Origin: Octopus vulgaris
Lineage: Eukaryota
Reading direction: 5' to 3'
Assembly: GCA_951406725.2 (NCBI GenBank)
Contig: OX597826.1
Coordinates: 64,046,001 to 64,110,000 of the forward strand
DNA length: 64,000 nt
The notes under the pieces are model-generated. The model saw only the letters and a list, made by a program, of their open reading frames with translations. It ran no database searches and had not been told where the DNA came from. Below, in pieces: positions 10,644-63,155 of the stretch (its first letter is position 1; each line of letters starts with the position of its first letter). The position numbers were made by a program, and so were the translations under genes.

Positions 10644-11090
10644 GGAGCTTTACCTTTTGACCGACAGATTTAAAAAATAATTTTTCGTTTGTCACTGTTA
10701 CTTATGACATCGTTTGTGCATTTGTACTGATTTTAGCTTTAAGGTTTTAGGGTTAGGGTTAGGGTTAGGGTTTTAGGGTTAGGGTTAAGGTTTTAGGGTT
10801 AGGGTTAGGGTTGTCATAAATAACAGTGACTAACGAAATATACACCGCTGGAAGTTCTTGTTGATAACAACAGCAGTAATTTTATTCAGTGGAATACACG
10901 TCATTGATTGGTTGAAATTACTGAAATAGGACAACTTTAATATGAAATAACTTCGTAAATATAAGTTTTTCTCAAAAATGCTAAGAGTAAAAAATGTTTT
11001 ATATGACACATTCTACCAGTGTCCGAAGTTTGAAAGTGTTTAATTACAAAAAATTATTTTTTAAATTTGTCAGTCAAAAGGTAAAGATCC
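10644..11090. mobile_element. MITE with 42-bp TIRs, 8-bp TSD and internal (TTAGGG)n tract
   Basis: TIR gga(g/t)ctttaccttttgac...aaaaataattttt with 3 mismatches; flanks aaagcttt / aaagcttg; telomeric repeats 10741-10812. Confidence 0.85.
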
Positions 11091-16768: not shown

Positions 16769-16920
16769 GATTCTTTCAGTTTCCGTTTACCAAATCCACT
16801 CACAAGGCTTTGGTCGGCCCGAGGCTATAGTAGAAGACACTTGCCCAAGGTGCCACACAGTGGGACTGAACCCGGAACCATGTGGTTCGTAAGCAAGCTA
16901 CTTACCACACAGCCACTCCT
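16585..16920 (-). mobile_element. SINE family A, two partial copies
   Basis: Head and body matches separated by CA/TA repeats. Confidence 0.8.
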
Positions 16921-17515
16921 ATACTTATATGTGAGGAAATATGCCTTTGCCTATTGAAATATGTGAGGAAAATTCCTCCACATGGTATACATATAATTTT
17001 GTAAGTAAAATCTTTTACTTATAATGAGAATGAAGATTAGAAAGTGTCCAAATGAATATAGAAAGTCCATGAGTAGCTTAATCCTACATACAAAACTTGC
17101 ACGCTTTTGGTTGCATATCCTTTCACTAACATTCATATCACTACAGCCCTTATGGGCTCCAACACTAAATGCTTGCTAGTGTTATATGATTTGTAAATCA
17201 TGATTTCTTGAGTTCAGTTTCACTGTGCAGCAAGGTGTAGCTGTGGCTGTATGGCGAAGAAGCTTGCTTCTGAACTGTGTGGTCTCGGGTTCAGTCCCAC
17301 TGCACGGCACATTGGGCAAATGTCTTCAACTGTAACCTCTAGCCAACCAAAGTCTTATGAGTGGATATCGTGTATCTACTGTTTTTACCTCGCTCAGAGG
17401 TTTATTATTGCTTGTTTCCACTTTTCTGAGATCAGTAACTTTTCGTCTCTGGAAAAAGTATATATATATATTTATTTATATTGAGAACCACTTCCTATCG
17501 CCAACCGGTGGTTGT

Positions 17516-17560
17516 CACATGCTGATGATGGATCAATATTCAGAAACCCGGGTCCGTGTG
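17516..17560 (+). ncRNA. Minimal type I hammerhead ribozyme, canonical core, GUC site after 17554
   Basis: Stem I CACAUG/CGUGUG; CUGAUGA; stem II UGGAU-caau-AUUCA; GAAA; palindromic stem III ACCCGGGU; GUC. Confidence 0.85.
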
Positions 17561-17799
17561 TATCACGTCAGGCTGCAGAGGGGAATGATTACTTCCCTTT
17601 GCAAATACTGATAGGGCACAGACGGTGTGTCAATAGCCAGCTGGAGGAGATGTCTTCCTGGGGCTACAAGCTACAGTAGCATCAACCCTTAAGGGTTAGC
17701 CACATTTAGGTGGCAAATATACTTCACAATGTTGTGCAGCTACTGTTTATATCTCGCTCAGAGATTTATTATTGATTTATACATATTTACACATATTTA

Positions 17800-62254: not shown

Positions 62255-63155
62255 TTTTCGGCTACGGAGAATACGAATCTGCAAAAAATTACTCCTCCCC
62301 CACTACTTTCTTCATTTTAAACTTTTTTTCAGAATTTTTTTTGGAAAGACTACCACCCGTCTCCCCCCAACCTTATTTTCTCCCAAATTTGTTTATTTGG
62401 CAATGTTTCGTTTGTTTGGCAATGTTTATTTTTGTAATTTTTTTTGCTCCAAATCCCCGTTTTCGGATACGGAGGTTCCGGAAAATTGCCAAAATTCGGC
62501 ATTGTGAAATTTTTTCCCCCTTCCCGCCCCCAACTTCAATTTTGACTTTTTTCCCAACACTAACCCTAACACCCTAACCCTAAAACCCCAACCGTAAGTA
62601 CAGAAATGTTTTGAAAATTTTGTCCGAATCATGATGTCCGTATTTTCCCGCATATTTAGAAAGAAAAAAAAATATTACAAAGATTTTTGGAAATTTTTTT
62701 CAGAATCATAATCTCCGCATATTTTGAAAAAAAAATTGTGAAAAAGTTTTAAATGAAGGAAATGGGGGAGGGGGTAATTTAGAAATGTCGATTTTTGTAA
62801 ATTTTTTTTTTTTGCAGATTCGTATTCCACGTAGCCGAAAAGCAGGGTTTGAAGTGTGGTTTTTGGTGGGTAACGGGCGGAAGTCTTGTCATCCTTTTTT
62901 TTTTCTCAAAATATGAGGAAAAAATACGGAGATTATGATTCTGAAAAAAATTTCCAAAAATTTTTGTAGTTAGGGTTACGGTTAAGGTTAGGGAAAAAAG
63001 TGAAAAAAGAAGAAATTGGAGTGGGGAAGGGAGGCCGAAATTTCAAAATGCCGATTTGGGGCAATTTTCCGAAAACGGGGGTTTTTGGTAAGAAAAAAAT
63101 GGGGAGAAAATGGTGGAGGGGGCGGGAGGAAGCCTTTCCCAGAAAATTTTTGAGA
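62255..63155. mobile_element. Large degenerate foldback element with inverted telomere-like tracts
   Basis: C-rich left half mirrors G-rich right half; ctaaccc tract 62560-62590 and ttaggg-like tract 62969-62993. Confidence 0.65.

Follow-up and report, generated by a model that had tools for sequence, protein, structure and literature searches.

An ORF-less hammerhead element of Octopus vulgaris, probably inserted in the manner of Penelope-type elements

Organization of the Locus

The window analysed here is a stretch of 64,000 nt (64 kb) of the Octopus vulgaris assembly GCA_951406725.2 (contig OX597826.1, positions 64,046,001 to 64,110,000), and all coordinates refer to it. The element is preceded by an interspersed host repeat (17257..17364, minus strand), which lies outside the element and was recognised as an inverted match to 16789-16903. 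We take this flanking repeat to be SINE-like. It is interrupted at the start of the element: the intact copy at 16789-16903 runs on beyond GAGTGGAT, whereas 17257-17364 switches to element sequence.

The sequence-only reading of this DNA had described a 35-nt direct repeat at 17376-17410 and 17740-17774. The comparison showed that 32 of the 35 positions are identical and that the two copies lie 364 nt apart (blastn E 2e-9). The true extent of the repeat is larger, 49 nt at 84% identity (17365-17413 and 17729-17777). In the match to the family profile, the upstream copy spans 17364-17409, corresponding to model positions 309-354. According to the 49-nt repeat and the profile match, this upstream part (17365..17413, plus strand) is a copy of a tail of the type found in Penelope-type elements (PLEs), the 5′-truncated end of a second unit, and contains the left repeat described earlier.

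The body of the non-coding unit (17414..17730, plus strand) gave a full profile match of 415 bits, and position 17730 is the tail-less fixed 3′ end of the family. An internal TA-rich run (17455..17478, plus strand) is a few bases longer here than in most copies in an alignment of 30 copies. Because this run has grown, the unit at the locus measures 364 nt; the length reported earlier therefore holds for the locus but not for the family, whose unit is about 357 nt. Between the two fixed 3′ ends lies the PLE-type tail (17731..17777, plus strand). It carries a short CTC/GAG hairpin and ends in TTATTAT, and about 39 nt of it are common to a sister family, family B. The tail is followed by a decayed (TA)n (17778..17799, plus strand), a likely insertion target judging from its sequence and from the TA-run statistics of the family ends. 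No target-site duplication was seen at the window copy.

The absence of a credible ORF was confirmed, the longest ATG-started frame in the unit being 30 aa, and the unit contains no Pol III A or B box consensus. Elsewhere in the window, short interstitial TTAGGG-type repeats were observed at 10739-10812 and 62556-62597.

Hammerhead Motif and Predicted Folding

A type I hammerhead motif was located at 17516..17560 (plus strand), with predicted cleavage after C17554. It comprises a 6-bp stem I (17516-17521/17555-17560), the CUGAUGA core (17522-17528), stem II (17529-17533/17538-17542), GAAA (17543-17546), and a 2-bp helix III. The palindrome ACCCGGGU (17546..17553, plus strand) is predicted to form helix III between two hammerheads in a dimer. 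The motif scan showed that this is the only type I hammerhead motif on either strand of the 64-kb window. In 200 local shuffles, the chance rate of the motif was 0.035 per window with a stem I of at least 4 bp and 0 with a 6-bp stem I. The Rfam scan of the window returned no hammerhead among 31 matches at E ≤ 5.

The motif had been called canonical, and its core, stems, palindrome, and predicted cleavage site are as then described. The exception is the base of stem II, which is U-A rather than the G10.1-C11.1 pair that is highly conserved in hammerheads according to the consulted part of PMC4209133. Of 101 family pieces, 69 have C.A and 23 have U-A at this position, and the U-A of the window copy is likely a product of CpG decay.

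The three hairpins named in the sequence-only reading are all present in the MFE fold. In circular-mode folding, the circular monomer was more stable than 40 shuffles (z -3.5). The hammerhead fold of the monomer reached -2.5 kcal/mol (outer pairs left out) versus a local MFE of -11.9, and it is absent from the MFE of the predicted circle. The self-duplex of the palindrome reached -14.9 kcal/mol. The hammerhead, which lacks the usual G10.1-C11.1 pair, would likely work as a dimer; with its one hammerhead, the window copy would not release a monomer by itself. The helix III loop variants among the 101 family pieces were TCGG (40), TCGA (26), and CCGG (15), and CCGA was absent. All of the variants are compatible with the palindrome, which is a weak indication because few lineage events lie behind them.

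The hammerhead core was intact in 59 of the 101 family pieces, and the core letters decay at about the background rate. Selection would therefore be visible only between source lineages.

Family A in the Genome

A search of the 2.8-Gb genome returned 4624 first-look candidates, of which 40 were scored, the best hits being 83–89% identical; the unit is thus not single-copy. We refer to this family as family A. The mean pairwise distance was 13.6% among 22 full-length copies, and the window copy differed by 7.0% from the majority letters, with the reservation that these 22 are the best matches to the window copy and hence biased towards it. Judged by this divergence, family A is old. The window copy is an old, single, and likely inactive copy of it, and it is not likely to be a source of RNA.

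A 27-mer of the core had 31 exact matches in the genome, all dispersed and at least 400 bp apart. For a 22-mer of the terminal repeat there were 393 exact matches, and its control had none. These matches define the tail-selected set used below: 88 loci covering the first 100 of the 393 listed matches, with four loci that were already part of the analysis omitted. Among 30 loci chosen with a longer-than-unit query, four spanned two hammerheads. One of the dimers (L180) consists of two full units head-to-tail, with both cores intact and without an ORF. The unit is therefore a closed, ORF-less monomer of about 357 nt. Its length and its GC content (0.42) lie within the range used for retrozymes (non-coding, 150–450 bp, GC < 50%). 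The sequence-only reading is supported in this respect, the genome containing a multicopy, ORF-less hammerhead element of the retrozyme type with tandem copies.

We considered whether the locus is a tandem satellite or a local duplication with a chance hammerhead-like motif. The silence of Rfam and the richness of this genome in simple repeats would suit such an origin. It is refuted by the dispersed family, as the core matches are scattered; in addition, the motif with a 6-bp stem I appeared in 0 of 200 shuffles, and the copies have fixed ends and inverted arms.

Four public runs, each labelled as a different organism, also have contigs with family A, and none of these contigs spanned the window locus. 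At the loose ends at 17736 and 17778, other runs carry further sequences adjoining the same tail. Two motifs seen beside the tail in these contigs had no exact match in this genome, and further tail-sharing families likely exist in the other runs.

Sister Family B

Family B has a unit of 360 nt, its copies are 94–100% identical, and it occurs in tandem up to several units. It is younger than family A. The two families are 60% identical overall, with the last ~39 nt (the tail) common to both. The hammerhead of family B occupies the same position and keeps the core, and its stem II is canonical with swapped, compensated pairs. Since core, stem I, and palindrome are kept between the families and stem II is compensated, the source lineages were under selection for the hammerhead fold.

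A subfamily of family B carries the core CUGACAA (C3.A8, G8A). Its motif was matched exactly 26 times, at 19 loci that lie on 11 contigs (e.g., L099:2617-3668), and the G8 copies of family B had 63 exact motif matches. The divergence was 1.6% in the C3.A8 subfamily versus 4.6% in the G8 copies. The G8A exchange (C3.A8) would impair hammerhead cleavage. The sole support for impaired cleavage with C3.A8 is formed by the G8C and C3G data in the consulted part of PMC11167929, and a literature search for G8A data returned nothing direct.

At one locus (L078), a two-armed insertion of family A directly adjoins a family B multimer with one TA run between them, the same target having been reused.

Penelope-Type Tail and Insertion Footprint

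The 3′ ends of 94 arms (at least 50 nt long) from the 88 tail-selected loci fell into two classes: 48 ended at the position of 17772-17777 and 33 at that of 17730, with 13 elsewhere. The two fixed 3′ ends lie 42 nt apart, and 81 of the 94 arms finish at one of them. In head-to-head pairs, 24 of 30 had one tailed and one tail-less outer end. A TA run adjoins 49 of 82 canonical ends, compared with a background of 5%. The copies show variable 5′ truncation, partial tandems, inverted 5′-truncated neighbours, and AT-rich targets.

Similar marks are known from PLEs, which are truncated at the 5′ end, form partial tandems, and have an inverted truncated neighbour together with a 30–40-bp tail (Craig et al., bioRxiv 10.1101/2021.04.23.441226, consulted in part). 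Frangieh et al. (PMC11167929, in the part consulted) reported that, on AT-rich DNA in vitro, a PLE protein nicks both strands and extends them, and that reverse transcription begins at two internal sites, which delimit the tail. The intact family of this genome that encodes RT + GIY-YIG (781 aa) shows the same two-end pattern, with a tail of its own.

The footprint of family A is that of two-site internal initiation by a PLE (PMC11167929). The 35-nt redundancy is part of a PLE-type tail of about 45 nt. The sequence-only reading had taken the terminal redundancy as a sign of copying round a circle; on its own the redundancy is no proof of this, as it is a tail of the PLE type, which in vitro arises from two internal start sites of reverse transcription. 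Given a PLE-type tail with two fixed ends, the window copy therefore reads as tail-body-tail, that is, one unit and one more tail (~407 nt).

Search for an Autonomous Partner

The GIY-YIG search returned 148 matches in the genome, of which 20 loci and 7 longer stretches were examined. None of these 27 loci had a terminal repeat that aligned to the unit. Two unit copies beside PLE ORFs (L064 and L065) were rejected as linked partners, as they are separate insertions in TA runs of their own. At L028:150-2043, the complete 3′ end of an older PLE is joined to a family A unit by microhomology; the junction reflects either a template switch or a nested insertion. A recurrent link between this PLE and the unit was likewise rejected, as none of 19 other loci of that PLE family carries the unit. 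No autonomous element with this tail was found among the 27 GIY-YIG loci and the 19 relatives of the fused element, a sample of few families.

These results bear on the possibility that the unit is the pseudo-LTR (pLTR) of an autonomous PLE, of which the copies would be 5′-truncated ends. All insertion marks are indeed PLE marks, the L028 junction joins the unit to the end of an ORF-bearing PLE, and the ORF queries were of the Zn-finger-linker (Neptune/Nematis) type only. However, three PLE proteins matched only 3 of 130 element loci (duplicates included), two being the separate insertions and one the fusion, so that L028 is the one attached RT ORF in 130 loci. The other 19 sampled copies of the fused PLE family lack the unit, the first 40 loci have no upstream flank in common, and the dimers are without an ORF. 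Where arms run upstream of the body (20 arms, tail-selected set), they enter the unit's own tail and not an ORF. A pLTR origin is thus very unlikely, and the unit is not always attached to a Penelope ORF.

Several observations were made on the PLEs themselves. A young, intact PLE family (L061:906-5672, also L062-L064 and L047) has a 781-aa RT + GIY-YIG frame with a Zn-finger linker. Upstream of this frame, and overlapping it, is another of up to 479 aa, of which a 359-aa piece in L061 had no Pfam match. A UUGAUAA (U3-A8) hammerhead-like motif occurs in the terminal repeat of the family, together with repeated CCAAT/CRE-like boxes. By eye, its tail and that of family A have a loose common skeleton (TATAC, CTC/GAG hairpin, TTATTAT). 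At L066:3428-4000, the sequence after a PLE ORF is a tandem ~287-nt repeat and not a single terminal repeat. The GIY-YIG match at L058 looks like a host nuclease exon, presumably SLX1-like, and not a PLE.

Template of Reverse Transcription

The 5′ ends of the 81 canonical-end arms were compared with the predicted cleavage site. Forty-nine arms stop before it, 4 within 8 nt of it, and 28 beyond it; nine cross the unit junction, but no arm extends as far as a second hammerhead. Stops at the cleavage site amounted to 4 of 32 arms at risk; for the adjacent bins the figures were 4 of 36 and 6 of 28. A linear cleaved monomer is ruled out as the main template, as 28 of the 81 arms extend beyond the cleavage site and stops do not accumulate there. 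Because there is no reverse-transcription stop at the cleavage site, the template would therefore be a circle or an uncleaved multimer. We give the circle slightly better than even odds, and the uncleaved multimer falls a little short of them. A template of more than two units was considered for L018 and dropped, as its inverted arm reflects separate priming.

In the tail-selected set, 20 arms cross the junction; 18 of them cover the tail motif, and 9 of these 18 stop within 25 nt near the start of the tail (P about 0.001 for a pile-up at one turn, the interval having been picked after seeing the data). Of the five tail-less junction-crossing arms, four stop just short of one full turn. This accumulation of stops close to one full turn tends to favour a circle and is the best support for the circular RNA of the sequence-only reading. 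A similar picture would, however, arise from a transcript start near the tail or from a preference for joining there. The earlier reading had also proposed a search for circular reads; across the 17554/17555 joint, a circle and tandem genomic DNA would have identical sequences, and junction reads alone would not be diagnostic.

The ribozyme might also be a passenger inherited from a PLE ancestor, with the copies made from uncleaved read-through multimers and no circle. This overlaps with the explanation preferred below and differs only in the template. The even distribution of 5′ ends across the cleavage site agrees with such a passenger, as does the spread of the more homogeneous C3.A8 subfamily of family B. 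The main PLE template in vitro is uncleaved RNA, and hammerhead mutants were still inserted with no reduction (PMC11167929, in the part consulted). A mere passenger is at odds with the retention of core, stem I, and palindrome between families that are 60% identical overall, with compensatory changes in stem II, and with the tail-less arms that halt just short of one turn. Units of this kind also give circles in mussel, coral, and axolotl, according to the consulted part of PMC7229834. We regard a passenger ribozyme as a tentative alternative, somewhat below even odds.

Proposed Origin and Significance

We conclude that the window copy is a non-autonomous hammerhead element of the animal non-LTR retrozyme type, likely inserted into AT-rich DNA in trans by a PLE reverse transcriptase-endonuclease (probability about 0.85). 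A tandem source locus would be transcribed, and neighbouring hammerheads would pair through the palindrome and excise monomers, which may circularise. The PLE protein would bind near the tail and nick (TA)n on both strands, and reverse transcription would start internally at either edge of the tail. In the window copy, copying may have begun at ~17774 at the end of the tail, covered one unit and one tail (~407 nt), and stopped at ~17365.

The sequence-only reading had posed a choice between a retrozyme and a pLTR. The choice is largely a false dichotomy, since the family is without an ORF and yet bears the marks of PLE-type insertion, as proposed in bioRxiv 10.64898/2026.07.22.740005. By its genomic features, family A would be an animal non-LTR retrozyme, a new family of a known type, with predicted cleavage and predicted circular RNA. 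A partial literature search returned no such family described in a cephalopod, and the supplement of PMC7229834 may bear on this point.

Family A offers genomic evidence for the insertion of animal retrozymes by PLEs, a route that is proposed but unproven in the consulted part of the literature. Exact start sites of reverse transcription can be predicted from the two fixed ends, and two families that are 40% different yet share one tail point to a recognised signal. We speculate, as a possibility that we consider rather unlikely, that the truncation profile of family A preserves the trace of a Penelope enzyme that copied an RNA circle, passing the ribozyme cut without a stop and stalling after roughly one turn. 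Together with the spread of G8A, the 40-nt tail, and not cleavage, would then be the cis signal that mobilises any small RNA, and circles and uncleaved multimers would be alternative templates in vivo.

Comparison with Known Systems

Plant LTR retrozymes carry type III hammerheads in two long terminal repeats. The present unit is unlike them, with a single type I motif outside the terminal repeat. The pattern of an autonomous PLE, in which the repeat flanks an RT + GIY-YIG ORF, was not found in family A.

Family A resembles the metazoan non-LTR retrozymes of Cervera and de la Peña (2020, PMC7229834, here and below in the part consulted) in its ORF-less unit of 150–450 nt, GC content of 42%, type I hammerhead, tandem copies, and structured predicted circle. 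The unit size (~357 nt) is as in the mussel (350–390 bp) and axolotl (330/350 bp) retrozymes. The axolotl HHR_Amex2 is similar in that its helix III has two pairs and a tetraloop and the base of its helix II is mismatched; the mismatch is C.A in family A and U.U in axolotl (PMC7229834). Cleavage of this axolotl ribozyme is weak in the monomer and good in the dimer (PMC7229834). Unlike the metazoan retrozymes described there, family A consists mostly of dispersed truncated copies, its cleavage and circles are predicted, and no target-site duplication was seen at the window copy. The main text of PMC7229834 makes no mention of octopus or cephalopods.

Non-autonomous PLE derivatives were described by Li, Clavereau and Pollet (2026, bioRxiv 10.64898/2026.07.22.740005, consulted in part), who found that retrozymes co-occur with PLEs and proposed that they are mobilised by them. 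Family A fits this proposal, and L180 has the "two consecutive complete hammerheads" of their definition. Their survey covers 35 species, with no mollusc in the part consulted. The Xenopus elements described there have pLTR homology; for family A, the PLE families sampled yielded no homologous pLTR, and the link consists of insertion footprints.

The closest likeness in the manner of insertion is to the endonuclease-bearing PLEs (bioRxiv 10.1101/2021.04.23.441226; PMC3846280; Poseidon PAc, PMC11167929; PMC4209133; each in the part consulted). In contrast to these, family A has no ORF, its type I hammerhead is full-size and not minimal, and its tail is slightly longer (42 nt between the ends). 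Family A and these PLEs are alike in 5′ truncation, partial tandems, an inverted 5′-truncated neighbour, and AT-rich targets, and also in a 30–40-nt tail on one end, a hammerhead in the repeat, and two internal start sites.
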